Source: Escherichia phage UPEC03
Reading direction: 5' to 3' (one strand)
DNA length: 64,000 bases
Sequence record: MW250785
The translations under genes and the position numbers were made by a program. The notes below the pieces were generated by a model. That model did no database searches and was not told where the DNA came from. It worked only from the letters and a program-made list of their open reading frames with translations. This document shows, piece by piece, positions 1 through 59,841 of this stretch. How positions within the stretch are numbered: the first letter of the stretch is position 1; each line of letters opens with the position of its first letter.

Positions 1-683
1 TTGATACGGAAGAGGAAATGTATCTAAAAGAAGCTGAACTCGTAACAGACGAGTATATTTCGCTTCCTCACACATACAACATCAAACCCGGTGGTAAAGG
101 CGGAACGGCCTACGAACAAAGCGAAGAACATCGACGCAAAAACAGTAATGCGCTAAAAGGAAGAGAAATCACTCCATTACATCGCGATCGGATCTCCCGT
201 GCATTGAAAAATCATGTCCGTAGTGAAGAACATCAACGGAAACTGAGTGAAGCATCAAAGATTGCTGTTAGTACACCCGAACATAAAGAAAAGATGTCTG
301 CTCATTTTACAGAACTGTATAAATCTCGTCCTGAATTGAAACAGCAAATATCATCTTCTGTCAAAGCACATTATGCTAATGAAACAGAAGAAGAGAAAAA
401 TCAACGTCGATTGCGTCATACAGGGAAGGTTCGGTCGGAAGAAACCAAACAAAAACTATCCATTGCTCATAAAGGAAAACATACAGGAGAGAAAAATCCT
501 ATGTTCGGCAAACCTGCATCGAATCGCCGTATGGTTTCTGGTGATGGTGTTGTGTATGGTTCCGTCAAAGAAGCTGCGGAAACACTGGGGTTGTCGCAAG
601 GAACAATCGTTGCTCGATGCAAATCACAGAAAAATGTAAATTGGTTCTATGTAGGTGTTGACTTGCCGAATCAAATCGATTAG
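1..683 (+). CDS. Seg-like GIY-YIG homing endonuclease, C-terminal part (ORF open at window start)
   Basis: Reading frame is open from base 3; repeated NUMOD3-like motifs (EEHRRKNSNALKGR, EEHQRKLSEASK, EETKQKLSIAHKGKH) and C-terminal HTH-like GSVKEAAETLGLSQGTIV resemble T4 Seg proteins. Confidence 0.6.
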   Translation, partial: DTEEEMYLKEAELVTDEYISLPHTYNIKPGGKGGTAYEQSEEHRRKNSNALKGREITPLHRDRISRALKNHVRSEEHQRKLSEASKIAVSTPEHKEKMSAHFTELYKSRPELKQQISSSVKAHYANETEEEKNQRRLRHTGKVRSEETKQKLSIAHKGKHTGEKNPMFGKPASNRRMVSGDGVVYGSVKEAAETLGLSQGTIVARCKSQKNVNWFYVGVDLPNQID

Positions 684-732
684 TATTTTCTACATCGAAG
701 CAAATCAATTTGAAATCAAATAAGGTAAAATT

Positions 733-1329
733 ATGTTCAAGAAAATCGTAGCATTCGTGACTGGTAAAGTTGAAACTGCAATCGAACAAAACACTTCCCC
801 AGAAGAAGCCTGGCGCAGTGCTGCACGTATCCTGATCAAAGAGATCGACCGTCTGCAACATACTCGCGTTTCTGCTGTTCAGGAAATCGTGAAGTTGAAA
901 AAGAAAGTCAAAGAACACAAAGACCTTCACACTGGTAAAGAGTCGGAGATCAAAAAACTGCTGGCGGCGGGGCAGGAAGTGTCCAACAGTCATTATGTGC
1001 TGGCGCTGCAACATCGTAACATCTGGCAGGGCTTGCAGACGAAGATCGAAGAACTGGAAGGGATGAACAAAGAGATTGATCTCTCTGTCGTTGAACTGGA
1101 TCGCAAACTGGCTGATGTCAAAATCAACCTGGAGATTATCGAACTGAACAAGCAAACCGAAAGTCTGGGTCTGACTGTACCGGAAGACGTGATCGCCGCT
1201 GTAGGCCACACCTCCGTAAGCGTCGATACCATTGTGACGAAGATTGATGTGTTGCTGGGTGGCAAAAATGCTGCTTCTGTAACCTCCGCTGACGTTAGCG
1301 CTTACATCGACTCCCTGAACGCGAAATAA
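733..1329 (+). CDS. coiled-coil protein, possibly PspA/IM30-like
   Basis: 198 aa ORF with RBS aaggtaaaattATG and a strong downstream terminator; heptad-rich sequence with N-terminal pattern loosely alignable to E. coli PspA. Confidence 0.55.
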   Translation: MFKKIVAFVTGKVETAIEQNTSPEEAWRSAARILIKEIDRLQHTRVSAVQEIVKLKKKVKEHKDLHTGKESEIKKLLAAGQEVSNSHYVLALQHRNIWQGLQTKIEELEGMNKEIDLSVVELDRKLADVKINLEIIELNKQTESLGLTVPEDVIAAVGHTSVSVDTIVTKIDVLLGGKNAASVTSADVSAYIDSLNAK

Positions 1330-1333
1330 GAGG

Positions 1334-1357
1334 AAGGGGCGCAAGCCCCTTTTTTGC
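1334..1357 (+). terminator. rho-independent terminator
   Basis: aaggggcgcaagcccctt hairpin followed by T-run. Confidence 0.7.
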
Positions 1358-1358
1358 T

Positions 1359-2312
1359 ATGTACGATTATACTATTGAATTTGATCGCGGTGAACATTGG
1401 TTGATTTCTCGTGCGAGAAACTTCTATGTTAAACTTCCAAAAAACTTTCATACTTTACCTGACGATGATACAGATCGTTTATTGAGAATTCTCATAGATG
1501 GGAATGTTCCACAGCGCGTTTTTCAGGAAATGGTTGATCATGCGTGTTCTGAATGGGATAAAAAGTATTGCGAAGAACTGACGCATGATAGTATAGTAAA
1601 CAGCAACCTTAAAGACGCTTACGAACGAAGAAGTGTATATGACATTTTTTATGAAAAAGAGAGGAAAAGTGAAATGATGTTCGAAGACGGCAACAGTGCA
1701 TTCAAACCAGCACGTAAAACTTATCCAGACTGGCGCAAACAGTACGCAGAACAGCTATGGCACATTGACATTCCCGAAGCGCTCATGAAAGCGATTAGCC
1801 CTGCGGTTGACTACTATTCAGGCTGGAAAGATGAATATGAGTTAGAAGTCGGTTCGTTTAAGGCGCACGTCATCAAAGCGACCAGAATTCTTGATTTCGT
1901 TGAAGCTGTTGCGTCATGTGATATCGTTGAAGATATTCGTATTCCATCAATCAACGTTTCGCGGTATAGTTCTCCGGGTAACATTCGCGGGGATCGTTAT
2001 GCGAACCTGGCAAGCACTACGGATAAGCTGAACTTCCACAAAATCAATGAAAAAGGGTTTGATGGTTGTGTTCTGATTTCAATGGTGGTCGCCACAACAC
2101 AAGGCGAATACAAGCTGATCATTGATTGTGACAAAGCAAACCGCGCAGTTCCCACAGTCAAACAATGCTTTGGTGAAGATTTCAAAGTGTTGATGAAAGC
2201 CCGCGCAATGGAAAAATTCATCCATTCGTGCAAAAAGAACGTGCTGGAGAAGTATGATCCGGCGCTCACATACACCAAAATTGATAAAGATCTGGTAGGT
2301 GATTTATGCTGA
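1359..2312 (+). CDS. hypothetical protein (317 aa)
   Basis: Long ORF in the coding-dense plus-strand block; no recognised motif. Confidence 0.6.
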   Translation: MYDYTIEFDRGEHWLISRARNFYVKLPKNFHTLPDDDTDRLLRILIDGNVPQRVFQEMVDHACSEWDKKYCEELTHDSIVNSNLKDAYERRSVYDIFYEKERKSEMMFEDGNSAFKPARKTYPDWRKQYAEQLWHIDIPEALMKAISPAVDYYSGWKDEYELEVGSFKAHVIKATRILDFVEAVASCDIVEDIRIPSINVSRYSSPGNIRGDRYANLASTTDKLNFHKINEKGFDGCVLISMVVATTQGEYKLIIDCDKANRAVPTVKQCFGEDFKVLMKARAMEKFIHSCKKNVLEKYDPALTYTKIDKDLVGDLC

Positions 2313-2590
2313 TTAACAAAACGCAGTGCAAAGCGATTAACTTTCTTCTACATGAACTGATTGAAAGCGGTATTCGTTTTGAATTCGTCGATCCGATTAA
2401 CAGTGATGATCGTCATCTTCTCCGCTGGGTATCTGGTAGCAATCCGCTGGATTCAGTATCCCAGGTGGTAGAGTCTGCACTTAAACATATGCCTTGTCGT
2501 GTTCTGTTGGGTAGCGTTAACGCCTCCACATGGAATGGATCTGATGCTTATTATGTCGGATTCAAAAAAGAGTTGACGGACGACGAATGA
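2306..2590 (+). CDS. hypothetical protein (94 aa)
   Basis: ORF overlapping previous stop by a few nt, typical phage coupling. Confidence 0.45.
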   Translation: MLINKTQCKAINFLLHELIESGIRFEFVDPINSDDRHLLRWVSGSNPLDSVSQVVESALKHMPCRVLLGSVNASTWNGSDAYYVGFKKELTDDE

Positions 2591-2635
2591 TGTTATAATA
2601 TGCCCCTGTAGACAACAAACTATAGGGGCTAAATC

Positions 2636-2830
2636 ATGAAAATCAAAAATACTGCTACTGAAAATCTTTGTAACGAAATCGCGGTGACTTACTGGAAAGA
2701 AGGTCACGTAAAAGCAATGAAGGATTTTCAACAGTGGTGTGATACCCAGAAGTTAGCCAACTGGGAATACGCCGTAATCGTGGAACGGATCAAAGAACTG
2801 ATCCTTGAGAAGAAAGGCACTATAAAATGA
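2636..2830 (+). CDS. hypothetical protein (64 aa)
   Basis: Short ORF with RBS-like ggggctaaatcATG. Confidence 0.4.
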   Translation: MKIKNTATENLCNEIAVTYWKEGHVKAMKDFQQWCDTQKLANWEYAVIVERIKELILEKKGTIK

Positions 2831-2888
2831 TTCAACTGAAATTAGACACCCATACGCTGAACAATCTGTTCCCAGAGGCAAAAGGCTG

Positions 2889-3380
2889 ATGAACTTTGAC
2901 CGCATCTACAACATGGATATGGTCAACGGTAAAGGAATCCGTGTAGTGTTGTTTGTCACTGGCTGCAATCATAAATGCGAAGGTTGCTATAACCGTAGTA
3001 CATGGAATCCCCGCAACGGTACACCATACACCGAAGAGACTGAAAACGAGTTGATTAAACTCCTTTCAAATCCCCATGTGGACGGATTGACGCTTACAGG
3101 CGGCGATCCGTTTTACCGCACCAATCATCCAACGCTCTTAAAACTGCTCCAGCGCGTCCGTGCGACGTTCCCTGATAAAGATGTGTGGGTTTGGACGGGT
3201 TACACCCTCGAAGCCTTACAGGGCGATACAGAACGCTCTAAGCTATTACCATTCATTGATGTTCTGATCGATGGACGGTACGAAAAGGATCAACCGACTA
3301 AGAAACCGTTTCGTGGTTCTGATAATCAGCGAATGATTGAGTTCAAAAAGAATTCCATCGAAATTAAAAATATCGCTTGA
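2889..3380 (+). CDS. nrdG: anaerobic ribonucleotide reductase activating protein (radical SAM)
   Basis: 163 aa; VVLFVTGCNHKCEGCYN cysteine motif and near-collinear match to recalled T4 NrdG (MNYDRIY...LTLTGGDP...WTGY...GSDNQR). Confidence 0.85.
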   Translation: MNFDRIYNMDMVNGKGIRVVLFVTGCNHKCEGCYNRSTWNPRNGTPYTEETENELIKLLSNPHVDGLTLTGGDPFYRTNHPTLLKLLQRVRATFPDKDVWVWTGYTLEALQGDTERSKLLPFIDVLIDGRYEKDQPTKKPFRGSDNQRMIEFKKNSIEIKNIA

Positions 3381-3436
3381 CCTGGTTTGTGGTTCTGTTA
3401 AGATATCCACATCGAAACAAACTTGAGGACGAGAAA

Positions 3437-3598
3437 ATGAAAAACGCAATCATCAAAGAAATCTGTGAACTGGTTGATGTGTATGGTTGGAGTTTAGGCG
3501 CTGCTAAAGCAGAAGCCAAATCTCGTCTGGAAGTTGTAATCAAAGCCCGTAGCAAAGATGAATTTGTTACTAAATTGCAAGCCCTCTATGAGAGATAA
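3437..3598 (+). CDS. hypothetical small protein
   Basis: Start moved to internal ATG with RBS gaggacgagaaaATG; 53 aa. Confidence 0.4.
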   Translation: MKNAIIKEICELVDVYGWSLGAAKAEAKSRLEVVIKARSKDEFVTKLQALYER

Positions 3599-3602
3599 TA
3601 TC

Positions 3603-4553
3603 ATGATCCTGAATTTTAAAACCCGTAAAGAAGCCCGTGACTATTGCTGGAAGTGGTCGATTCCGCTGAAAAATATCAACAAACAATCCGCTGGTTCGCA
3701 TCCGTGGACGGTGAGAACAAAAGAAACCCGCTTCGTAAGCGGTAAAGATTATAAACTGATTGATGTCGAAGGTTTCACCGATAACGGCAAAAACGTTGCT
3801 AACCGCATCCAGGCGCAACAGATCAACAAATTCATGAACGGTGTTGTAAGCATCACAAGCCGTGATGGTGATCGCTATACATTCAACGCTCCAGCAGGTG
3901 TTGCTATGAACACCCTTCGTGCATGGGAAGCGAAATACTTCACAGAAGTTATTCCTGGTAAAGCCCCAGCGCCAAAACGCGCTAAAAAGCCAAAACCAGT
4001 AGGCAAACCGTCTGTTGCTCCTGCACCAGCTAAACCGGATCTGGATTCTGAACTGGATGGTGGCGTTAACCTCGCTCCAACAACAGAACCAGTTGCGAAA
4101 CCTGCTGCACCACAGCCAGCGACAGTTGAAGCAATGCCGCATAACTTTGTTGCAAATCGTCCGTATGTTCTGGTAGATGAACTAGGTTTCTTGCGCTCTC
4201 ACACTGCGAACGAACGCATTGTGCAACACATCAAAAACAACAACGGTGTTCTGGTGTTTGACTCGGTTGACGGCGACGGTGACGCGACTATCGAACAAGA
4301 TCGTAGCCTCCAGTTTGTGATGCATCGTGAGCGTGTATTCTTCCGTGAACTCGGTACTGGTAATCCGGCAAACACTCCATCGGTTCAGACCGTTGATATT
4401 ACCAAACAGCAACGCGATAAAGAGATCATCAAAGCTGCACAGGCAGTAGAAGACGCACTGGCAGAACACCAAACGGCGATCGTAGTTGTTACACAGAAAG
4501 CTCGCGCAGTTCGTGAAGCCGCTGCAAAACTTGCACTGCTGGCACGTAAGTAA
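3603..4553 (+). CDS. hypothetical two-domain protein with Pro/Ala/Lys-rich linker
   Basis: Start chosen at MILNFKTRK immediately after the upstream stop; central low-complexity linker KAPAPKRAKKPKPVGKPSVAPAPAKP; followed by terminator. Confidence 0.55.
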   Translation: MILNFKTRKEARDYCWKWSIPLKNINKQSAGSHPWTVRTKETRFVSGKDYKLIDVEGFTDNGKNVANRIQAQQINKFMNGVVSITSRDGDRYTFNAPAGVAMNTLRAWEAKYFTEVIPGKAPAPKRAKKPKPVGKPSVAPAPAKPDLDSELDGGVNLAPTTEPVAKPAAPQPATVEAMPHNFVANRPYVLVDELGFLRSHTANERIVQHIKNNNGVLVFDSVDGDGDATIEQDRSLQFVMHRERVFFRELGTGNPANTPSVQTVDITKQQRDKEIIKAAQAVEDALAEHQTAIVVVTQKARAVREAAAKLALLARK

Positions 4554-4561
4554 TATAATTC

Positions 4562-4590
4562 GGGGGTGCTTACGGCATCCCCTTTTTTAT
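4562..4590 (+). terminator. rho-independent terminator
   Basis: GC hairpin cgggggtgcttacggcatcccc followed by tttttt. Confidence 0.65.
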
Positions 4591-4601
4591 TTGAGGTAAT
4601 C

Positions 4602-5336
4602 ATGGAATTATTCGCTGGAAAAACTTACGGTTTAACCGTATCCCCTGAAATCTTTGCAGAGAAAACCTGGAAAACAGGTATCGCAAACATCATTCGTGAA
4701 AAAGGTTACGTGACGATTGATCGCACCTCGATCGGTGAGTTCGAAGACCGCGCGTTTATCATGGACGGTGGTTACGAATATGAACTCCCTGCATCACTAT
4801 GGAAATGGTTCAAGGAAGTAACGCCGGAAAATGGTGAATTCACCTCAGAAGAACCAGAAGAAGTTAATCTGAGTAAAGGTGTAGAGGCTGAAAACGTTAT
4901 GCATATCGCTACGCCGGAAGAGGTTTCCGCTGGTGTTACCGGATCGGATCTGCGTCTGATGGAGATCCCTAAATTCACGTATCGCCCTGTACAGGAAAAT
5001 CCTCTGCGCGATCTCCGCATCGATCCATCATTCGGGGCTAACCTGGAAACGTTGAGCATCGCACCGATGCCTGTACGTAAATCTGATGCAATGCTTCGTT
5101 TCGCCTTGCAACATGTTTTCAGTGGTGGTAGCATCTATCAAATCAACATGGAATCTGAACTGAAAATGCAGGAAGACCAGATTGCAAACCTGTTCGAACT
5201 GCACACCCAGTTAACCGCTGTTGAGAATATCGAAAAACTGTTAGGCAAAGAGAAAAAGCGTATTTTGCAGGATCTCAAACCATACGGAAAGAAGAATGAA
5301 AGTCGAAATCTACGGAATTCCCGAAAGTCTTCATAA
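4602..5336 (+). CDS. hypothetical protein
   Basis: Start chosen at MELFAGK just after the terminator; 3-prime end overlaps the nrdC-like start. Confidence 0.5.
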   Translation: MELFAGKTYGLTVSPEIFAEKTWKTGIANIIREKGYVTIDRTSIGEFEDRAFIMDGGYEYELPASLWKWFKEVTPENGEFTSEEPEEVNLSKGVEAENVMHIATPEEVSAGVTGSDLRLMEIPKFTYRPVQENPLRDLRIDPSFGANLETLSIAPMPVRKSDAMLRFALQHVFSGGSIYQINMESELKMQEDQIANLFELHTQLTAVENIEKLLGKEKKRILQDLKPYGKKNESRNLRNSRKSS

Positions 5337-5574
5337 CTGTTACGGGTGTATACAAGCACAAAAGCTGTTGACAGAAAAAGGGATAGAATATACATTTTAT
5401 CCCGTTCTGAAAGAAGCGAAAAACGATCTGGGCTTTGAATACGATCGCCCACGTATCGAAGAGTTAGCAAAACGGGTAAGGCAACGTAGTTTAGCGTTTC
5501 AATACCCGCGTATTTTTGTCGATAACAAACTTATCGGCGGTTATCTGCAACTGAAACAACTTATTGGTGATTAA
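5296..5574 (+). CDS. nrdC: thioredoxin/glutaredoxin-like protein (NrdC-like)
   Basis: 92 aa with CYGC active-site motif; pattern KVxxYG...HxCxxC...LLT...IGG matches recalled T4 NrdC. Confidence 0.7.
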   Translation: MKVEIYGIPESLHNCYGCIQAQKLLTEKGIEYTFYPVLKEAKNDLGFEYDRPRIEELAKRVRQRSLAFQYPRIFVDNKLIGGYLQLKQLIGD

Positions 5575-5913
5575 ATGAGTCGTGAAATTTTACTCCCTGC
5601 TGCAAATGCTGTTCATGCTGAAACGATGGAATACATGGAGAAATTCGTTGAACGCGATAACACCGCGATCATCACTCCTACTCACCTGGACGCGCTCGAA
5701 GATCGTCTTCATAAGCAGATTAAAGATCAATTCCCTGAAAAGGTTAGCCGCAACTTCATTCGTCAGGAAATCGTTGCAATGATGCTGAAACATTACGGCG
5801 TTGAAATCTTCGGTGTCGAACCACTGAAACCGAAGAAAGCACGTCAAATGCCTAAACAGATCACCGACGAAGCAATCAAGAAATACCAGAAGAAATACGC
5901 TAAGAATAAATGA
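5575..5913 (+). CDS. hypothetical protein (112 aa)
   Basis: ORF tightly packed between nrdC-like gene and the NTPase gene. Confidence 0.5.
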   Translation: MSREILLPAANAVHAETMEYMEKFVERDNTAIITPTHLDALEDRLHKQIKDQFPEKVSRNFIRQEIVAMMLKHYGVEIFGVEPLKPKKARQMPKQITDEAIKKYQKKYAKNK

Positions 5914-7337
5914 TCTTTCATACGATTGAATGTGTTCCGTCAAGTGGTAAAACAAAGGCGATTCTGAACCATATCAATCAAACGGGCGAAAAAGCAATCA
6001 TCGCTTCGATTTCCATGATGTTATCAAAACAGTCTTATGACTACTACATCAACCAGGTAAAAGGGAAACGAGCGGTGATTGTGGACACGGATCACCGAAC
6101 CAAAAGAACCAATAATGATGCGCTGCGTGAGGTTGTCAAAGATTATGATGTGATCTTTATCACTCATGCAGCACTCAAAAACATTGATGACTTTGATTTG
6201 TATAAGGATTTTTCTCTGTACATTGACGAAGTTCCTGATTTGGTTGCGTTCGAAAGTCTGCGATTTAATAGCAATATCAAGCACATACGCGAGATTTGCT
6301 TGCCGTTTAGTTGCAATGCCGATGATATCGTTGATTTAAAACTTGACGAAGAAAAACGAGAACTGGTTACACGATTAGCCTATGATGGGCTTCGTAAACG
6401 TGATGATATCGCAATGAAGATGTTCCCGCTTTACCGTGCTCTGTTAGGGGCTATTCCGGTGAAGATGCAATGTAGCGATTCGGGATATGTCTGTTACTTC
6501 GTAGAGGATCATGACGTAAGCCAGTGGAAGTTCAAAAATGTAACCATTGCTTCATCCAACATCAAAGATACGATTACAGGGAAGATCCTACAAACGTTTC
6601 ATGATGTGGAGTTCAAAGATTCACCGCTTCAAACGCTGGTTGACTTTAAGCAATATAAAAACACGAAGCGCATTAAAATACATGTGCTCGCAGAGGGGGA
6701 TTATTCGCGTTATACGGGTGATCTCTCTCAATCTGGGACGACAGTATACACCCAGATTAAAAAACGCGTGGAGGCGCTTTTAGGGGGCGAACAGTTCATC
6801 TATTGCACCAACACGTATCGATCGAAGTTTAGCGAGGGGCAGGAAATCCCGTATAACTCGCACGGATTGAACTTCTATTCGAGCTATACTAACGTGGTAG
6901 CATTATTCAGTTACAACCCGTTACCCTGGCTTCGTCAAATGTTGCGAGCGGTTGCGGTGTCCTCTGGACTCGAAGAGGAAGAATTAGTTGATGCTTATGT
7001 TGTCAGTAAATATTACGAACCAGCCTTTCAGTTATGCGCTCGTTCTGATATCCGACACAACAACAGCAAAAGAAAGATTAATTTATTTGTGCCTGATATG
7101 CGGTTAGCGAAATACATGAAGGAAAAATATTTTCCCGATGCCATTATCGAAACCACAGAAGCAGTTCAAACGAAAAGGCAACGCAAATCATTTCAAACCC
7201 TTTTCCAAATGACGGACAAAGAGAAAAACGCTTTTACGCCATACAAGAAAAGAAACAAATTAGATTATGCGAATCCTCTTCATCACGCGATTGTTAAAGA
7301 TTGGCTGAACAATTACCGTGAGAAAAAGGCGACTTGA
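5910..7337 (+). CDS. P-loop NTPase, function unknown
   Basis: 475 aa; Walker A VPSSGKTKA near N-terminus and Walker B-like LYIDEVPD about 95 residues later. Confidence 0.7.
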   Translation: MIFHTIECVPSSGKTKAILNHINQTGEKAIIASISMMLSKQSYDYYINQVKGKRAVIVDTDHRTKRTNNDALREVVKDYDVIFITHAALKNIDDFDLYKDFSLYIDEVPDLVAFESLRFNSNIKHIREICLPFSCNADDIVDLKLDEEKRELVTRLAYDGLRKRDDIAMKMFPLYRALLGAIPVKMQCSDSGYVCYFVEDHDVSQWKFKNVTIASSNIKDTITGKILQTFHDVEFKDSPLQTLVDFKQYKNTKRIKIHVLAEGDYSRYTGDLSQSGTTVYTQIKKRVEALLGGEQFIYCTNTYRSKFSEGQEIPYNSHGLNFYSSYTNVVALFSYNPLPWLRQMLRAVAVSSGLEEEELVDAYVVSKYYEPAFQLCARSDIRHNNSKRKINLFVPDMRLAKYMKEKYFPDAIIETTEAVQTKRQRKSFQTLFQMTDKEKNAFTPYKKRNKLDYANPLHHAIVKDWLNNYREKKAT

Positions 7338-7352
7338 TGGTCGCCTTTTTTG
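7326..7352 (+). terminator. rho-independent terminator
   Basis: ggcgacttgatggtcgcc hairpin followed by tttttt. Confidence 0.65.
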
Positions 7353-7354
7353 TT

Positions 7355-7362
7355 TATAAATA
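7355..7362 (+). promoter_or_regulatory. T4-type late promoter TATAAATA
   Basis: Exact TATAAATA 32 nt upstream of the gp34 start codon. Confidence 0.7.
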
Positions 7363-7393
7363 TCAGTATTGAATAAGATAAAGGAAAACGATA

Positions 7394-10300
7394 ATGGTAG
7401 CTAAATCATTCCGCGCCACAAGTGGCCTTGATGCTGCTGGCGAAAAAGTTATCAACGTTGGTAAAGCATCACGCTCTGTGTTGAGCGACGGCGTGAACGT
7501 TGACTTTTTTAACGAATTTAACACGATCCAACAATACGATTCTACCCGTGGTTATGCTGCGTTTATGGCTATCATGTACGCGCGTCGTATTTGGTACGCT
7601 CGCGCAGATATTCCATCACCAGCGGGTGCTTTCGATGAAACAAAATGGATCTCAACCCGTAACGATCCAAAATGGGTATATAACAACGTAACGAGCAATG
7701 ACGGTCTCCCTGTTGAATCCGGTACGTACTTAATGGCTGACGGTCGTTTCTCTGAATTGACCTATATTCTGCCAGATGCCCCTGTTGAGGGTGATATTAT
7801 CACTATTAAAGATGGTGGCGGTCTTGCAGGGATCAACAACCTGTTAGTGCGTTCAAACACTCGTCAGATCCGTTTACGTGATATTCAGTCAAGCTCTTAT
7901 CGACTGACTCACCCATATATGACCGTTGCGTTTATTTTTAACGGCAACTTATGGCGTGTTGCTGAAATGCGTGATAACCGTGATTCGCAGTTTGTTAATG
8001 CGACTGGTTTAACCGCTTTCCAAATGCAAGCGGGTATGGTAACATTCCGTAACAGTGGAACGGGTAAAATTACGTTGCAGTTGCCTCGCTACGCAAACGA
8101 TGGTGACTCAATCACAACTTACGATCTGGATCGCCTTGCTTCGGTGAACGTTGCGACTCTGCAAGTTTATCCTGGTAGCGGACACACGATCAGTTATGAC
8201 GGTATCAATAACGTACCCTCTGTGACTTCACAGCGTTCCGGTTATGGTATTTTCATGTTCGATCAGGCTAATAACCGTTGGGTTGTTTATGACGGTGATC
8301 AGCGCGTTCGTCTGCGTCGTATCAGTGATGACCTGAACATGTTGCCGAACGATTACGTGTTCATTACTCCTGTTGCTGGTAGTCCTCCAACTGTGCGTAA
8401 CGTTACGCTGACTCTTCCGCAAGATGTTGCCGAAGGTGATCGCGTGTATATCAGTATGTACATGATGGGGAAAACGCAGAACTGCACGATCAAAGTTAAA
8501 GATGGTTCCGGTGAAAAGATCCGCACCAACAAAAACATGATGCAGTTCCCACAGCGTAAGGATTATCCGCCTAATGATTGGTTCAGTGTTGACACTCTGA
8601 CTTTCAATGCCGATACTGACTATCTTCCATACATGGAATTGTCGTATCTGAAAGCTACGAAAGAATGGGTAGTTGCACAGTATCGCCCGATCATTGAACG
8701 TGTCGATCCAACAAACCGTTCTCGTCTGGGTGTGATTGCGCTGGCTACACAGGCAGAAGTAAACAAGAACCATGAAGATACGCCGTCTGATGAACTGGCA
8801 GTAACCCCGCGTACACTGGCGAATAAAACCGCTACTGAAACGCGTCGTGGTATCGCTCGCCTGGCAACAACTGCGGAAGTTAACCAGAACACGACAGCAA
8901 CCTTCCTTGATGACGTGATCGTGACGCCTAAAAAGCTGAACGAACGATCAGCAACAGAAGATCGTCGTGGGGTGCTGGAAATCGCAACTCAGGCAGAAAC
9001 AAACGCTGGTACTGATGACACTACCGCAATCACGCCTAAGAAGCTCGACACACGCCGCGCGACCGAAACCCTAGCAGGTATCGGAAAACTCGTTACAACG
9101 GGCGCTACGACAGCGGAGGGGGCTTTACGTGGGGATGCTGGTACTAACGTCTACAACTTCAATAACGGTGTTGATCTGATCACTCCGAAATCATTGAACG
9201 AGAAGACGGCGACCGAAAAGTCAAAAGGTCTGGTTGTTCTGGCGACTGAAAACGAAGTGGTAACTGGTGCTGCTGCGGGATCTGCTTCAATGCCGATCGT
9301 AGTAACTCCTGAAATGCTGCATCGTAAAACGTCTACTGAAACGCGTATCGGATTGATTGAGATCGCAACCCAGACAGAAACAAACACGGGAACTGACGAT
9401 CTCCGTGCTGTAACGCCTAAGAAGCTGAACGATCGTAAAGCGACTGAATCACTTGATGGTATTATTGCCCTCGCTACCACTGCGGAAGTTGCAGCAGGTA
9501 CGGTAACGAATAAGGCGGTTGTTCCGGTTAAGCTGAAAGAGTTCTTCGACGTTACAAGTCATGTTGCGGTTGCTACCGATGACGGTTTAACTCAGTCCGG
9601 CACTATCTGGACAACGATTAACCTGGGGATTGCGTCTGCTACTGAAACACAGCGCGGTACTTTACGTGTTGCGACTCAGGGTGAAACTGATGCGGGTCTT
9701 CTGGATACCGTGTTCATTACGCCTAAGAAACTGCAAGCGAAGAAAGCGACGGATACCGCCGAAGGTATTATTCGTTGTGCGACTAACGCGGAAGCGGGTG
9801 CGGGTACTGCTACTAACCTGGCAATTACTCCGGCTACCATGCAGTTCTTGAACGGTACTGATCCGGCGTGGGGTGCGACGACAACTCGACGCGGTGCGGT
9901 GTTTATCACTACCCAATCAAACACTTTCATCGGTGATAATCTGGTTGGTTCTACTCAGGCCGTTGACGATTATCTCGAAGATTTCTATGCTGTATCGCCT
10001 CGCGGTCTGAACTTTGCTCTGCAAAACTTCTTACCGAAAATGGCAACGGCACAGAATAGTTTGAGTCTGGGCGGTGTGGTTGCTGCAAGCTGGATGCGTC
10101 GTGATGCAAACCAGACGGTAACTGGAAATAACACGTTTAACGGTACAAGCAACTTCGTTGGTAACGTAACCACTAACGGAACACTGACGGCTAACGCTGC
10201 GGTAACGGTTAACAACACCGTAACCACGAACAATAACATTAACCAGTCTGCGAAAGCAAACACTGTTTATGCAAATACTGTTCTGAGTGGTGAGGCTGCG

Positions 10301-12654: not shown

Positions 12655-12674
12655 AGGGGCGAAAGCCCCTTTTT
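12652..12674 (+). terminator. rho-independent terminator
   Basis: aaaggggcgaaagcccc hairpin followed by ttttt. Confidence 0.6.
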
Positions 12675-12682
12675 CATAAATA
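12675..12682 (+). promoter_or_regulatory. late promoter-like CATAAATA
   Basis: One mismatch to TATAAATA, 23 nt upstream of the fibre gene ATG. Confidence 0.45.
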
Positions 12683-12705
12683 CAGTCATTACAGGAGAAA
12701 TTTTT

Positions 12706-15028
12706 ATGGCTGATTTGAAATTAGGTACAACGCTGGGTGGTGCGGGTATCTGGAGTGCTTCTAACCTTCCTCTATTGCCCTCTGGTGGACAATTAACGTA
12801 TAAAGGCTGGAGAGTATACACAGAAAATGATCGTCCAACAGCGGAGGATATAGACGCACTATCGACGATTAACGGCGGTACTGTTGCGGTATAAAGGCTG
12901 GAGAGTATACACAGAAAATGATCGTCCAACAGCGGAGGATATAGACGCACTATCGACGATTAACGGCGGTACTGTTGCGAAGAATACTACATTCAATCAG
13001 AATTTGGTTGTGGGTGCTTCATTAACTGCTAACTTGATTCAATCGAATAGTGTTCTTACCATCCAACGTAGCGCAAACCCTGCGGAAATGATTTTCTATC
13101 GTCCCGATATTACGGCAACCCCGTCATCTGAAGCATGGGTTTTAAACATGTATGCGAAAGATGGTTTGAATCGAGGCATGGGTTCGTTGATTATTTCTGC
13201 TCGTACTGACGGTGGAAATAAAGTATATCTGCGGGCGAATAAAGACGGTTCCCCTAATACAAGTTTAACGCTGGATTCGCAAACCCAACAGGTAACAGTT
13301 GAGCAAGGATCTTTTCGCGTAATCGGTACTACGAATCTTGGTGTGACGAACGCCGCATCAATGGCGGTTAGCGGTGCGGTAACTGCGAATACAGTAACCC
13401 CGACAAACTGGGCTAACCATGATGAACGATATATGACGGGCATTCCTCGCGGTATGTCTGGAACAAGTTTCGGTGCTGCTGTTGTAACTGAAAAGAACGA
13501 TGTTCTGTCGGTAGGCGGTAACATCACCGACGGCCCATATGGTAACACTACGTATTACGGGCAGGTTGTCAACTATCGCCGTACATTGAATAGTGGGGTT
13601 TCATTAGTTCAAACATACTTCGGGAACGAAATGTGGTTTCGTCTTGGATCAGGTTCTCCGGGTGCGTGGTCATGGAACCAGGGCGATGCTAATGGTTGGC
13701 GGCGTGTTTATGATACGGTCAGTCCACCAACTCCGGCAGAAGTGGGGGCAGTAAACAAAGCTGGTGATACAATGACTGGTGGTTTAGCGTTACTTGGGGA
13801 TTTGACCTTTCGAAATTTGGTAAATCGTCATATTCGTTTCGAATACACCAAAAACGACGGTTCTACCGCTGTTGACGCTTACATCTATAAAGATGGTGTA
13901 GATAGCTCTACTCGCCGTGCTGGACTTCGCATTAACTGTGCCACACCGAACAAAGCGAGCGGGAATACTTTAAACTCAGGTGATTTTGTATTCGGGGAGA
14001 ATGGTAACTTCACACTGCCTGGCGGTGGTATGATTATTCAGGACGGCCTTAACTCTGGTGTTTATTGTATTTCTGCATTGAGTACATTATCAACAGGAAC
14101 GAAGAATTACCTTCGTCGTTTCCGTGGTGGTTCTGGTGATGTGATTTTTCATGAAACCGTACAAAGTAATACATGGCGTATAGCGTCGGGTGGTTCTGAT
14201 TCACAAGATGAAATGGTTCTTTCTACTGCTGGTTCTGGTTGGGTTCGATATCGTGGAGAGGTTGTTTCGCAATCAGCTAACGGGTTGCGGATTGCGTATA
14301 ACAATAAAGGATTCTTTATCCGAAATGACTCAAACACCACATATTTCTTGTTGACTAATGATAATGATCCCTATGGCTCGTACAACAGTCTTCGCCCTTT
14401 GTATATCAACAATGATACTGGTTCTGTAACGTTAGGTCATGCTGTTGGAATAGGCGGAAACCTCAGCGTCAACGGTACATTTACCACAGCAAACAGCAGT
14501 TTGAGCAATGGTCAATTAGTATTAAACGGTTCAGGCGATTCGCAAGTTTATTTTTCACGAAGTGGTGCTAACCCTCGCGATATGAGAATTTTCCATTCTG
14601 GTGATGCTTCTCGCGGGAACCGTGTTGAAATTGCTGATTCTACATCATATCTGGTTTATTTTGAGCGTCATCCGTCAAGTGGCATTCAGTTGTCCATGAA
14701 CGGTAACGGTATCTTTAACGATGTGTATATTCGTTCTGATGAAAGACTGAAAAGTAATTTCAGTAAGATTGAAAATGCATTGGATAAAGTTGATTTGCTT
14801 GATGGTATGGTGTACGACAAAGCAAACCATATCGGGGGTGAAGAAACTACCCGCGAGGCTGGTTTAGTCGCACAACAACTGCAAGAAGTATTACCGGAAG
14901 CCGTTAAGAAAGGTGTTGATGGTGAACAGAACGAGATCTTAACTGTTTCGTCTTCTGCTGTTATTGCGTTGCTGGTTAACGCGATTAAAGAACTCCGTGA
15001 GGAAGTCAGGGAACTTAAATCCCGCTAA
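12706..15028 (+). pseudogene. distal long-tail-fibre subunit (gp36/gp37-like) with C-terminal intramolecular chaperone domain, frame-disrupted by a 91-bp tandem duplication
   Basis: N-terminal 62-aa fragment MADLKLGTTLGGAGIW... (12706-12894) ends in a stop; the rest continues in the +1 frame from 12884 (714 aa). Removing one 91-bp repeat copy restores a single ORF of about 744 aa. C-terminus carries the S-D-x-R-L-K autoprocessing motif (IRSDERLKSNF). Confidence 0.8.
12798..12979 (+). repeat. perfect tandem direct repeat, 2 x 91 bp
   Basis: Bases 12798-12888 are identical to 12889-12979 (gtataaaggctggagagtatacacag...ggcggtactgttgcg). Confidence 0.9.
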
Positions 15029-15030
15029 TT

Positions 15031-15050
15031 AAAAGCCCTTCGGGGCTTTT
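15031..15050 (+). terminator. rho-independent terminator
   Basis: aaaagcccttcggggctttt hairpin with T-run. Confidence 0.7.
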
Positions 15051-15056
15051 TCTTTT

Positions 15057-15064
15057 TATAAATA
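15057..15064 (+). promoter_or_regulatory. T4-type late promoter TATAAATA
   Basis: Exact TATAAATA 26 nt upstream of the second fibre gene. Confidence 0.7.
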
Positions 15065-15090
15065 TCATAAAAGCATTTGAGGATCTAATA

Positions 15091-17304
15091 ATGGCAGATT
15101 TAAAAGCGGGTACTACCGTTGGCGGTAATACTATCTGGAGTCAGGCAAATTTACCTGTTCTTCCTTCTGGAAATACTTTAACATACAAAGGCTTTAAGGT
15201 ATATACCGAAAACGACAAACCAACAAAAGCCGAAATCGGGTTAGGCAACGTAACGAACGACGCACAGGTGAAGAAAGCTGGCGATGATATGACCGGATCT
15301 CTGAACATCACAGGGGCGAATAGTCAATTAACTGTTCCTTATCGCCTGTTGATGCAACGTGCGGTTGCTGGAGATCCATACGTCCTGTTTGTTCGTCCAG
15401 ACAACAACCCAATTACTAACGGATATCCTTCTACAACGCTTCGTGTAATGACTATCACTGCCCGTGCTGCGACAACTACTGATCCGGTTTCTGGCGCTCA
15501 ACTGGCAAACATTTTGTCAGATCAGACAGCACAGGGTAACGGGTCATTAACTCTGCAAGCGTTTGCAGCCCCGAACACATCTACGGGCGCAAGCGGTGCG
15601 CGTACAGCGGAAGTCTATTTGAACGGTAACGGACAGTTATCAATGATAGGTTCCGGTTTAACGATCGGGATGCAGACTGTTGTAAACGGTACGATTTTCG
15701 GTACACAAATGGCTATTAAAGGCGATTCGAACCGAAACCTGTTCTTCCAGGATGCTGGCGATAATGAATTGAGTTTGATTTATGCGGATACCGGAAAGAA
15801 CTTATATGTTCGTACTGGTGGCGGCGCATATGCTACTCGTTTCGCTTCTGATGGAACTTTAGTATTAGCAAATCATCTAACCGTTCCTGGTATTGCTACT
15901 TTTAACGGTCAAGCAGTGATGAATAGCCGTTTGTCTGTGTCTACTGATTTTGACTCTCAGGGAGTCAATAGTGCGGTTATTCGTGTTGACACAAGCGGCG
16001 ACGGAAACGCGGTTGGTGATGGTGTAACCCATTTAGGATATAAAGACGGCAACGGAAGATTCAACCATTATTTCCGTGGTACTGGATCGTTATTTGTTAA
16101 CACCAAACTTGGTATGAACATCAACGTACCATCTTATTATAACGATGTACCACAAACCACTCCAGCACAATATTTCTTGTCTACGGGTACGCAAGGCGCG
16201 AAAAATTATTTGCGTCAGTTCCGAGGCGGCAACGCGGATACGATCTGGCATGAAACTGTTCAGGGTGGCTTATATCGTTTAGCGTCTGGTAGCACTGATG
16301 CGCAAGAAGAATTCATGGTTTCTACTGCTGGCTATATCAGATCTCGCGTAGAAGTACAAAGTGCTTCGTGTGGTTCTGGCGGTCAGTTCCGCGCGGTTCA
16401 GGGTAACTTCGGCGTGATGCACCGAAATGATGGTGGTAACTATTACTTCCTGATTACTAACTCTGGCGATCCGTGGGGAACGTGGAACGGATTACGCCCA
16501 TTCACCATTGGTTTGACCACGGGTATTGTATCGATGTCCAGCGGTGTTAATATCTCCGGTGGTTTCAACATCAACGGTGCTGCTGAATTTAACAACGGTC
16601 TGGGTTGTGGTACTGCAAACGGATTGGGCGCAAACGCAATATCTCTGGGTGATACCGATACAGGTTTTGTTCAAGAAGGTGATGGTATTCTCAACGCCTA
16701 CGCGAACAGCCAACGAATTCAACGTTGGACAACAGGGGCTAGTGCAGTTTATAAGCAATTGCAGGTTCAAGGCGTTAACGGGCCAGCATTACTTCTGAAC
16801 AACACCGCAAGCAACCAGTCTGTATACATGCTTTTGCAATATGCAGGTACAAACGCTGGTTATCTGGGCTTTGGTGGTTCTGATAACACCATGACAATGC
16901 ACAACTACCAGTTGAATACAAACTTACAGTTGCGCGTAAGTGACATATATGTAAACCGTGCATTGTATGGTGAAAGCACAGGCAACTTTACTGATGTGTA
17001 TATTCGTTCAGATCGCCGTCTAAAATCGAACCTGGTTGAGATTAAAGATGCTCTGGTTAAAGTAGAACAGCTTACAGGCTATGTATACGATAAACAATCA
17101 AAAGATGCGGACGAAATTGTATACCATCGCGAATCTGGTCTGATTGCACAAGATGTTCAGGAAGTATTACCTGATGCAGTAAAAGAAGATAGTAACTCCG
17201 GTATGCTTACGATTTCACCTGCGGGTGTTAACGCGCTTCTGGTGAATGCAATCAACGAACTGCGCGAACGTCTGGAAGCAATTGAAAACAAATTAGGGGC
17301 TTAA
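15091..17304 (+). CDS. 37: distal long-tail-fibre subunit (gp37-like) with C-terminal intramolecular chaperone domain
   Basis: 737 aa; N-terminus MADLKAGTTVGGNTIW...LTYKGFKVYTENDKP resembles T4 gp36/gp37 N-termini; internal NYLRQFRGG...WHETVQ and FLITNSGDP...GLRP motifs shared with gp34/gp37; C-terminal IRSDRRLKSNL autoprocessing motif. Confidence 0.85.
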   Translation: MADLKAGTTVGGNTIWSQANLPVLPSGNTLTYKGFKVYTENDKPTKAEIGLGNVTNDAQVKKAGDDMTGSLNITGANSQLTVPYRLLMQRAVAGDPYVLFVRPDNNPITNGYPSTTLRVMTITARAATTTDPVSGAQLANILSDQTAQGNGSLTLQAFAAPNTSTGASGARTAEVYLNGNGQLSMIGSGLTIGMQTVVNGTIFGTQMAIKGDSNRNLFFQDAGDNELSLIYADTGKNLYVRTGGGAYATRFASDGTLVLANHLTVPGIATFNGQAVMNSRLSVSTDFDSQGVNSAVIRVDTSGDGNAVGDGVTHLGYKDGNGRFNHYFRGTGSLFVNTKLGMNINVPSYYNDVPQTTPAQYFLSTGTQGAKNYLRQFRGGNADTIWHETVQGGLYRLASGSTDAQEEFMVSTAGYIRSRVEVQSASCGSGGQFRAVQGNFGVMHRNDGGNYYFLITNSGDPWGTWNGLRPFTIGLTTGIVSMSSGVNISGGFNINGAAEFNNGLGCGTANGLGANAISLGDTDTGFVQEGDGILNAYANSQRIQRWTTGASAVYKQLQVQGVNGPALLLNNTASNQSVYMLLQYAGTNAGYLGFGGSDNTMTMHNYQLNTNLQLRVSDIYVNRALYGESTGNFTDVYIRSDRRLKSNLVEIKDALVKVEQLTGYVYDKQSKDADEIVYHRESGLIAQDVQEVLPDAVKEDSNSGMLTISPAGVNALLVNAINELRERLEAIENKLGA

Positions 17305-57456: not shown

Positions 57457-59144
57457 AATTAAATTTCCGTAAAATTAAGTATCAAAATATTCTGTCGGTC
57501 GGGAACACCCCGATCGAACTGGAATTTGATACGGCAAAGAAAACCCTGATCACGGGGAAAAACGGTGGCGGTAAATCGACACTGATCGAGGCGTTAACCT
57601 ATGCCCTGTTCGGTAAATCATTCCGCGATCTAAAAGTCGGGCAGTTGGTGAACAGCGTCAACAAAAAGAAATGCCTGGTTGAACTGGAAATCGAATACGG
57701 GAAAGACTCGTACAAAGTGGTGCGCGGACAAAAGCCGAAGGTGTTCGAGATCTGGAAGAACGGTGAGAAGTTGCCGGAAGACTCCGCAGCAGGTGATTAT
57801 CAGGCACAGCTTGAATCTATGCTGAACATCAACCTTGTGGGCTTCAAACAGGTTATCGTTCTGGGTACAGCGGGTTACACCCCATTCATGGAACTGAAAA
57901 CCCCAGAACGCCGGAAACTGGTTGAAGATTTGCTGTCTCTGTCCGTCATCAGTGAAATGGATAAGCTGAACAAGTCATACATTCGCGGTGTTAATCAGCA
58001 GTTGGATACGCTCTCAATGCAGGGTAATCACATCCAGCAGCAGATCGCAACACATCAGCGCTTCATTGACGAACAGCGAGCGAAAGCGAACCAGAACAAC
58101 GCCCGATACAAAGAGATCTATGATAGCCACGTAGAAACCGCAAAGAACATCAAAGCACAGCTTATGCAGTTGCAAGCGGAGATTGCGGAATCGGTGATCA
58201 CTGGAGAAGACCGGACGGAAGATATCAACAAACTCCGTGACGGTTATTCGCGGCTCTCAATGACTGTAGAACAGTTTAAAAAGCTGGAGGTGATGTATCA
58301 GAAAGGCGGTGAGTGTCCGGCCTGTAAGCAAGCGATTAAACCCACTCCTGAGCGTATGGCGGAGATCGCAGAGAACATCAAAGCGGGCACACAACGTTTA
58401 ACCCTGATCAAAACCAAACAGGACGAGTTACAAGGGATCATGAATGACTTGCTGCAACAGCAACGCGCACTCAATGCCCTGAAAACCAAATATGAAGCCC
58501 TGAAAGGTACTCTGCAAAACGAAGTTGCCAATGCTAAACGAGCACAGGCGATCATGGAACAGGCAAGCGCGGAAGTAGTCATTGATGAAGAACCCGTGAA
58601 GCAGTTGCAACAGCAGGAAGCAGAACTGAACGAAAAACGACAAGGCTACGTCAAGGAAAAATACATTCGTGGTATTGTTACTGATATGTTGAAAGATTCC
58701 GGCGTTAAGGCCAGCATTGTTAAGCGCTATATTCCGTACTTCAACAAACAGATAGCATATTATCTGGATCTGTTGGGTGCGGATTACCAGTTCACTTTAG
58801 ATGACGAGTTCAACGAATCGATCAAATCACTGGGGCGCGATGATTTCAGTTATGCGTCATTCAGTCAAGGCGAACGTGCTCGCATCAACTTGTCTATTCT
58901 GTTCACATGGCGTGACGTGACAAGTAAAGTATCAGGCGTGGATCTGTCTCTGCTGATTATGGACGAAGTTTTCGATAACGCTCTTGATAAAGAAGGTGCG
59001 TTTGCTGTAGGGGCTGTTCTGAATGGTATTGATGGTAATATCATGGTGATTAGCCACAACGATTTAGACCCTGGTGATTTCGATCGTCATATCGTCATGG
59101 CTAAATTGGGGCGCTTCTCGAAGATGGAAATCAAGAAGTCTTAA
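57453..59144 (+). CDS. 46: recombination endonuclease subunit (Rad50/SbcC-like ATPase)
   Basis: 563 aa (T4 gp46 is 560); Walker A GKNGGGKST, central coiled coil with CPAC zinc hook, C-terminal LLIMDEVFD. Confidence 0.9.
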   Translation: MKLNFRKIKYQNILSVGNTPIELEFDTAKKTLITGKNGGGKSTLIEALTYALFGKSFRDLKVGQLVNSVNKKKCLVELEIEYGKDSYKVVRGQKPKVFEIWKNGEKLPEDSAAGDYQAQLESMLNINLVGFKQVIVLGTAGYTPFMELKTPERRKLVEDLLSLSVISEMDKLNKSYIRGVNQQLDTLSMQGNHIQQQIATHQRFIDEQRAKANQNNARYKEIYDSHVETAKNIKAQLMQLQAEIAESVITGEDRTEDINKLRDGYSRLSMTVEQFKKLEVMYQKGGECPACKQAIKPTPERMAEIAENIKAGTQRLTLIKTKQDELQGIMNDLLQQQRALNALKTKYEALKGTLQNEVANAKRAQAIMEQASAEVVIDEEPVKQLQQQEAELNEKRQGYVKEKYIRGIVTDMLKDSGVKASIVKRYIPYFNKQIAYYLDLLGADYQFTLDDEFNESIKSLGRDDFSYASFSQGERARINLSILFTWRDVTSKVSGVDLSLLIMDEVFDNALDKEGAFAVGAVLNGIDGNIMVISHNDLDPGDFDRHIVMAKLGRFSKMEIKKS

Positions 59145-59841
59145 ACTTGCAGTTGTCAAAATGCCATCGTTTCATATTGGTGGCATCACCAACTTTAGCG
59201 CAATGGGGGCAAGTTAATTGCTCCCTTTTCTTTTGTATTTTTCTGTCTGGGTTCTGGGTACAATATGGAATATGGCTGTTCAAGTAATGCACTGTCGATT
59301 CTGTACCACAATGAGGACAAGAACCGCGATCTGATACTACGTTGCTGTTTTTATGTGCTCGCATGACTCCTGCAAATGCATTCACTTTCCCTTCATTGCC
59401 TGGCTTGTGCTTGCAGTTGTCGAAGTGCCAGCGGTTCATATTACCTACTAAGCCGGACGTATTGCAATGAGGACACGTAACCCTGTTCTGTTGAAGTTTG
59501 GCCTGTCTCATGCGTAAGCGTGTCTCTTCGCTGAACTCTTTTTGTTTCTGGGCTTCAAGTGCTTTTTCTTTTAACCATCCATAGCGGCGGTTTGCTGTAC
59601 GCGCAGACGATCGAGAAGTGCCGACTGTAAGCATGTTAGCAGCATAAATTAGTTTATGGTTGCCTGGATACATCTTAACCAATAGCAGATGTGCTATGAA
59701 ATGTTGACGTGCTGACAGTTCAACCAGATTTTCGGGATCGTCCGATCCTCCCATACATTTTGGAACGATGTGATGTTTCTCTTTGTACTTTGCATCCGTT
59801 CCGGTAGTCATGAGTTGTTCGTAAATCTTATGATAATTCAT
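59131..59841 (-). CDS. HNH homing endonuclease with triple zinc-finger repeats
   Basis: 236 aa; HHIVPKCMGGSDDPENLVELSARQHFIAH HNH core and three CPHC...WHFDNCK repeats; convergent with and overlapping the gene 46 stop. Confidence 0.75.
   Translation of the reverse strand: MNYHKIYEQLMTTGTDAKYKEKHHIVPKCMGGSDDPENLVELSARQHFIAHLLLVKMYPGNHKLIYAANMLTVGTSRSSARTANRRYGWLKEKALEAQKQKEFSEETRLRMRQAKLQQNRVTCPHCNTSGLVGNMNRWHFDNCKHKPGNEGKVNAFAGVMRAHKNSNVVSDRGSCPHCGTESTVHYLNSHIPYCTQNPDRKIQKKREQLTCPHCAKVGDATNMKRWHFDNCKFKTS

Follow-up and report, generated by a model that had tools for sequence, protein, structure and literature searches.

An nrdG gene without nrdD at the start of a 64-kb stretch of Escherichia phage UPEC03 DNA: very probably an edge effect in an ordinary nrdD-nrdG locus

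The stretch of DNA analysed here (Escherichia phage UPEC03, sequence record MW250785; 64,000 nucleotides, referred to below as the window) carries near its start a gene for the activating enzyme of class III (anaerobic) ribonucleotide reductase, nrdG, with no gene for the reductase, nrdD, beside it. We asked whether the phage has lost nrdD, whether the gene has been moved away from nrdG, or whether it simply lies outside the window. The features of the window on which the answer depends are the following.

1..702, no strand: right-hand part of the mobile seg cassette, with the junction to the conserved backbone at 702/703
1..683, + strand: Seg-like (SegH-like) free-standing GIY-YIG homing endonuclease, 3' part, residues 58-283 and stop (GAP161_243)
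733..1329, + strand: e.6-like protein, 198 aa (phrog_1203, 7e-75; annotated as e.6-like in GAP161)
1359..2312, + strand: 317-aa ORF, RB43 ORF268w-like, not NrdD-like (phrog_10543, 2.3e-157)
2306..2590, + strand: 94-aa ORF (phrog_7412, 2.5e-47)
2636..2830, + strand: 64-aa ORF (phrog_5072, 7.9e-30)
2827..2889, + strand: 20-codon remnant of a 176-aa ORF (GAP161_248, phrog_3806), with a 468-bp in-frame deletion
2889..3380, + strand: nrdG, class III (anaerobic) ribonucleotide reductase activating enzyme, radical-SAM, 163 aa (TIGR02491, PF13353)
5296..5574, + strand: NrdH-like glutaredoxin (PF00462 Glutaredoxin, 1.7e-6; 44% identical to T4 NrdH, E = 4e-17)
5575..5913, + strand: gp55.2-like protein, DUF7570 (32% identical to T4 gp55.2, E = 3e-9)

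nrdG, its neighbours and the relatives of the phage

Analysis of the deduced protein confirmed the nrdG assignment of the first-pass annotation. NrdG scored 198.4 bits against NCBIfam TIGR02491, whose curated equivalog cut-off is 126.1, and residues 3-152 aligned to positions 2-153 of the 154-position model. Pfam matches were to Fer4_12 (PF13353, 1e-50) and Radical_SAM (PF04055, 7.7e-10), and the CX3CX2C motif of the radical-SAM [4Fe-4S] cluster is present as CNHKCEGC at residues 26-33 (C26, C30 and C33). The protein is 97.5% identical to NrdG of Cronobacter phage GAP161 and 58% identical to that of T4; exactly identical copies were found on only two database contigs, which measure 3.6 and 4.9 kb and one of which lacks seg. 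As judged from its sequence, the window nrdG encodes an intact radical-SAM activase of the ordinary kind. As a member of this family, NrdG would generate the glycyl radical on NrdD, and we infer enzymatic activity for NrdG and for Seg alike.

The first-pass annotation was also correct in stating that no nrdD adjoins nrdG inside the window. A tblastn search with the 703-aa GAP161 NrdD over all 64 kb and both strands gave a best E value of 1.5. ARAGORN found no tRNA genes over positions 1-64000.

The first 8 kb of the window are 96-97% identical at the DNA level to Enterobacter phage PF-CE2 (MW629017), Cronobacter phage GAP161 (NC_019398), Klebsiella phages phi1_146015 and HMGUkp1, and many other phages of Klebsiella, Enterobacter and Cronobacter. 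Altogether, positions 1-8000 match 174 records of T4-like phages of Klebsiella, Enterobacter, Cronobacter and Citrobacter. By these matches the window phage is a T4-like member of the RB16/RB43/GAP161 group (Straboviridae; "Pseudotevenvirus" in the taxonomy of the record). Gene order and content from seg to gp34 in GAP161 and PF-CE2 are the same as in the window. The annotated order in GAP161 is nrdC - 49 - nrdD - seg - e.6-like - three small ORFs - 176-aa ORF - nrdG, and the order 3' of nrdG continues to nrdH - 55.2 - 475-aa ORF - gene 34.

Downstream of nrdG the window retains the T4 order nrdG ... nrdH, and synteny with T4 extends beyond nrdH to the gp55.2-like gene, whose products in the relatives match PF24454 (DUF7570). 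The segment immediately 3' of nrdG, window 3380-3600, is a variable spot. Alignments to four related loci (L005 and L009-L011) break between 3410 and 3589, and at the place of a small ORF at 3377-3598 (73 aa) the relatives carry a 53-aa ORF, a 73-aa ORF or none.

The seg cassette and the position of nrdD

The Seg-like endonuclease fragment that the first-pass annotation had placed at the window start was verified. Translation of window 3-680 is 100% identical to residues 58-283 of GAP161_243, and this part matches NUMOD3 (40.5 bits, cut-off 20.4) and I-TevI_DNA-bd (41.9 bits, cut-off 27) in Pfam. The gene appears as a fragment because the window edge cuts through it, and it is not truncated in the genome; the window opens at about codon 58 of 283, and the first 57 codons, with most of the GIY-YIG domain, fall upstream of the window. 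GAP161 Seg, which is 100% identical over the 226 residues common to both, was used for the N-terminal domain; at full length it matches SegE_GIY-YIG over residues 5-71 with 24.5 bits, just below the cut-off of 25.

In 22 records of Klebsiella, Cronobacter and Enterobacter phages, window 1-702 is matched at 99.7% identity or more. The seg gene is polymorphic and has sharp junctions; of the related records, about 174 in number, these 22 carry it. When phages that lack seg are aligned to the window, homology sets in only at 701-703. Alignment of seg+ with seg- genomes revealed that homology stops 16 bp before the nrdD stop codon and resumes 30 bp before the ATG of the e.6-like gene (window 703), the seg+ genomes carrying a 940-bp cassette between nrdD and the e.6-like gene. 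Comparison of the GAP161 locus (L001) with locus L006 showed that the cassette (L001 14755-15700) is about 100% identical while nrdD is only 67-92% identical per 100 bp. Conservation of seg above that of its flanks bears the mark of a recent lateral spread through homing. Since the left junction falls inside the last 16 bp of nrdD, the cassette would normally travel beside nrdD.

A 17-bp hairpin (-23.6 kcal/mol, z = -7.7) lies at L001 14788-14833, about 170-215 bp upstream of the point that matches window base 1, and buries the seg Shine-Dalgarno sequence and the first bases of the start codon. Translational down-regulation has been described for T4 endonuclease genes, and the GAP161 hairpin resembles such cases; it may bring about translational repression of the endonuclease. 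At the far end of the window, a 236-aa ORF (59131-59841, - strand) matches the first 123 residues of T4 MobC with 36% identity (E = 3e-17) and shows a weak HNH match together with several zinc-ribbon matches. The ORF probably encodes a second homing endonuclease of the free-standing type within the window.

In the annotation of GAP161, nrdD occupies 12667-14778 and seg 14832-15683, and window base 1 falls on base 15001 of this locus; the nrdD stop codon thus lies 223 bp upstream of the point matching the first base of the window. Matches to NRDD (598 bits), Gly_radical and ATP-cone mark the GAP161 NrdD as a complete reductase of class III. The 601 bp that precede the window-start point in GAP161 consist of the 3' end of nrdD, a 53-bp spacer and the 5' end of seg. 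This junction fragment was recovered as one contiguous piece with 100% coverage in all 22 seg+ records, and it is annotated as NrdD plus endonuclease wherever annotation exists. The 3' end of nrdD matches 174 records, the same count as for window 1-8000. A second sample was provided by the e.6-like protein, which is encoded in identical form on at least 23 contigs: a gene of 703-709 aa with NRDD and Gly_radical matches was found upstream in each of the ten contigs that were retrieved.

The evidence for the NrdD partner therefore comes from relatives (22/22 seg+ records and 10/10 retrieved contigs), because identity to database phages over the first 8 kb reaches about 97% at most and the window itself contains no nrdD. 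Look-ups with the exact sequences of the 317-aa protein and of gp34 matched no record. The nrdD-nrdG region is visibly mosaic among these relatives. We infer that the DNA upstream of the window in this phage is like theirs. The window would begin inside seg, the first gene of the nrdD-nrdG spacer, inserted immediately 3' of nrdD, and nrdD would for that reason fall just outside. On this reading the stop codon of nrdD should stand 223 bp before the first base of the window and about 3.1 kb before nrdG begins. It is thus very probable that nrdD stands just beyond seg and that the missing partner is a window-edge artefact of an ordinary locus. The first-pass annotation had considered that nrdD might be absent, for which the relatives offer no support, and had itself set against its proposal an arrangement with nrdD directly upstream of the window and only the endonuclease gene in between; exactly this arrangement is seen in every seg+ relative.

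Two other readings of the locus were weighed. According to the first, nrdD is present but farther off, separated from seg by an extra insertion such as a second endonuclease gene or an intron. The neighbourhood is indeed an insertion hot spot, with alternative cassettes downstream of nrdD. Some loci carry an additional 108-aa ORF between gene 49 and nrdD (L005 6612-6938, L009 6262-6588 and L017 1178-1504), and in a metagenomic relative, L010, a 359-aa SegE_GIY-YIG product is encoded beside nrdD at the usual place of gene 49 (5509-6588). There are also records with two endonucleases in the region, and nrdD of T4 contains an intron. However, nothing separates nrdD from seg in the 22 seg+ records, in all of which the junction fragment is contiguous, and an insertion in the window phage is very improbable.

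On the second reading, nrdD is gone from the phage and an intact nrdG is left as an orphan, whose product would then have to act on NrdD of the host. The lack of nrdD in the 64-kb window agrees with this, and a survey of phage ribonucleotide reductases did report incomplete class III sets, but in the opposite sense, with nrdD and without nrdG (PMC3653736). Against it stand the nrdD gene directly upstream in all 22 genomes with identical seg and present in all ten retrieved contigs, the left junction of seg within the last 16 bp of nrdD, which normally keeps the cassette beside that gene, and the 174 matching records, among which no relative lacking nrdD was seen. Loss of nrdD is accordingly regarded as extremely improbable. 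A copy of nrdD elsewhere in the window, for example following a rearrangement, is ruled out by the tblastn result given above.

The region between nrdD and nrdG

With nrdD very probably placed just beyond seg, the distance between the nrdD stop and the nrdG start in the window phage is predicted to be about 3.1 kb (223 + 2888 bp). The same architecture, with 3104 bp from nrdD to nrdG, was found in L005, and in the group as a whole the spacer is variable, measures 3-4 kb and holds small ORFs. A spacer of this predicted length is normal for the clade. Adjacency of nrdD and nrdG would not be needed, since the two genes share a strand and belong to a single early/middle gene block.

The first-pass annotation had suggested that nrdD might have been displaced upstream by endonuclease-associated insertions. 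The outcome holds, in that nrdD lies beyond seg in the relatives, while the cause was identified only in part: the seg cassette accounts for about 0.94 kb of the predicted 3.1 kb, and the remainder is made up of four small ORFs without an endonuclease signature. The endonuclease-derived part of the separation is only about a third. These four ORFs (198, 317, 94 and 64 aa) are common to seg+ and seg- genomes, and the 176-aa ORF between the 64-aa ORF and nrdG is present in some relatives and absent from others. At the position of seg, the seg-less genomes carry a 1287-bp block of three ORFs of 160, 80 and 166 aa (phrog_8646, phrog_6990 and phrog_10107), seen at L003 8773-9991 and also in L004 and L007-L011, and the spacer is therefore no shorter in these genomes. 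The seg cassette and the three-ORF block look mutually exclusive.

Neither the 1359-2312 nor the 2306-2590 ORF has a Pfam or NCBIfam match. Both belong to phage families of their own (phrog_10543 and phrog_7412), in agreement with the earlier statement that the ORFs of 1359-2590 are not NrdD-like. As these families are conserved, the possibility that the two ORFs are a degraded or split NrdD was ruled out.

Alignment with GAP161, in which the Seg residues present in the window are 100% and NrdG 97.5% identical, revealed one difference directly upstream of nrdG. There GAP161 carries the 176-aa ORF GAP161_248, whereas the window has only a 20-codon in-frame remnant, in which tblastn finds just residues 1-18 and 170-176. 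The endpoints of the 468-bp deletion lie in an 11-12 bp direct repeat of the full-length gene, TGTTCCCAGA(A/G)G. The deletion keeps the overlapping stop and start signals on both sides: at its start the remnant shares ATGA with the preceding stop codon, and at its end it shares TGATG with the nrdG start. The deletion variant was also found in L003, L005 and L009-L011, while the full 176-aa ORF is kept in L001, L002, L004 and L006-L008.

A scan for promoters and terminators over window 1-7400 gave counts at chance level, and no claim on transcription units is therefore made. Among the sites found, a sigma-70-like site (TTGACG, 17 nt, TAATAT) occupies 2573-2601, just upstream of the 64-aa ORF, such sites being no more numerous than expected by chance; it is followed by a hairpin at 2602-2629 (GCCCCTGTAG...CTATAGGGGC; -18 kcal/mol, z = -6.2). 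Within the first 7.4 kb, a late promoter motif of the T4 type occurs just once, before gene 34.

More distant members of the clade, Slopekvirus 05F and Buttiauxella phage GuL6, carry seven to eight small ORFs between nrdD and nrdG. These are partly different from those of the window, and the spacer is therefore a plastic region and not a dedicated operon. It is likewise unlikely that the spacer ORFs are dedicated accessory genes of the ribonucleotide reductase, the set differing among Slopekvirus 05F, GuL6 and the RB16/RB43/GAP161 group.

The nrdD-nrdG arrangement described here is already annotated in GAP161, RB16 and RB43-type phages. With nrdD very probably in its usual place, a false lead is removed, in that nrdG would not be orphaned, and the locus is of little special importance. 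It illustrates two known phenomena, namely that a SegH-like cassette can be near-identical in diverged phages of Klebsiella, Cronobacter and Enterobacter, and that the spacer between nrdD and nrdG is plastic.

Comparison with T4 and T6

In T4 the locus reads nrdD - mobC - nrdG - 55.8 - nrdH, and the order and strand of 49, nrdD, nrdG, nrdH and 55.2 are as in the present group, which keeps the T4 order nrdC - 49 - nrdD - ... - nrdG - ... - nrdH - 55.2. The first-pass annotation had taken nrdD of T4 to lie immediately upstream of nrdG. This is approximately right, except that the HNH endonuclease gene mobC stands between the two; the insertion site of mobC is given as nrdG/nrdD in the review by Edgell, Gibb and Belfort (PMC2988022). 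T4 and the relatives of the window phage therefore have in common a free-standing homing endonuclease gene immediately downstream of nrdD, of the HNH type in T4 and of the GIY-YIG type in the window. They differ in that no more ORFs follow between mobC and nrdG in T4 and in that T4 nrdD carries the I-TevII intron. Alignment of T4 NrdD (605 aa) with the 703-aa protein of GAP161 begins only at residue 85 of the latter, so that T4 NrdD is without the stretch in which Pfam places the ATP-cone.

The order nrdD - segH - nrdG in T6, RB3 and U5 is attributed to Sandegren, Nord and Sjoberg (2005), as cited in PMC2988022. The T6 record (AP018814, L016) has scrambled product names: the NrdD ORF goes under 'RNA ligase 1 and tail fiber attachment catalyst', and 'tail sheath monomer' is the name given to part of nrdG. 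Genes were consequently assigned by tblastn and not by label, the NrdD ORF being 69% identical to GAP161 NrdD. On this basis a GIY-YIG endonuclease gene at 4001-4819 lies between nrdD (2170-3993) and nrdG (4819-5286). Its product is 47-48% identical to the window/GAP161 Seg over 96% of the length and shares its NUMOD3 and I-TevI DNA-binding make-up and probably its GIY-YIG domain; at this level of identity the T6 and window Seg proteins are homologues. The T6 endonuclease gene, directly 3' of nrdD, ends where nrdG starts, whereas in the window group another four or five ORFs, amounting to about 2.2 kb, precede nrdG. Close to nrdD, the seg cassette of the window phage would stand where T4 has mobC and T6 has SegH.
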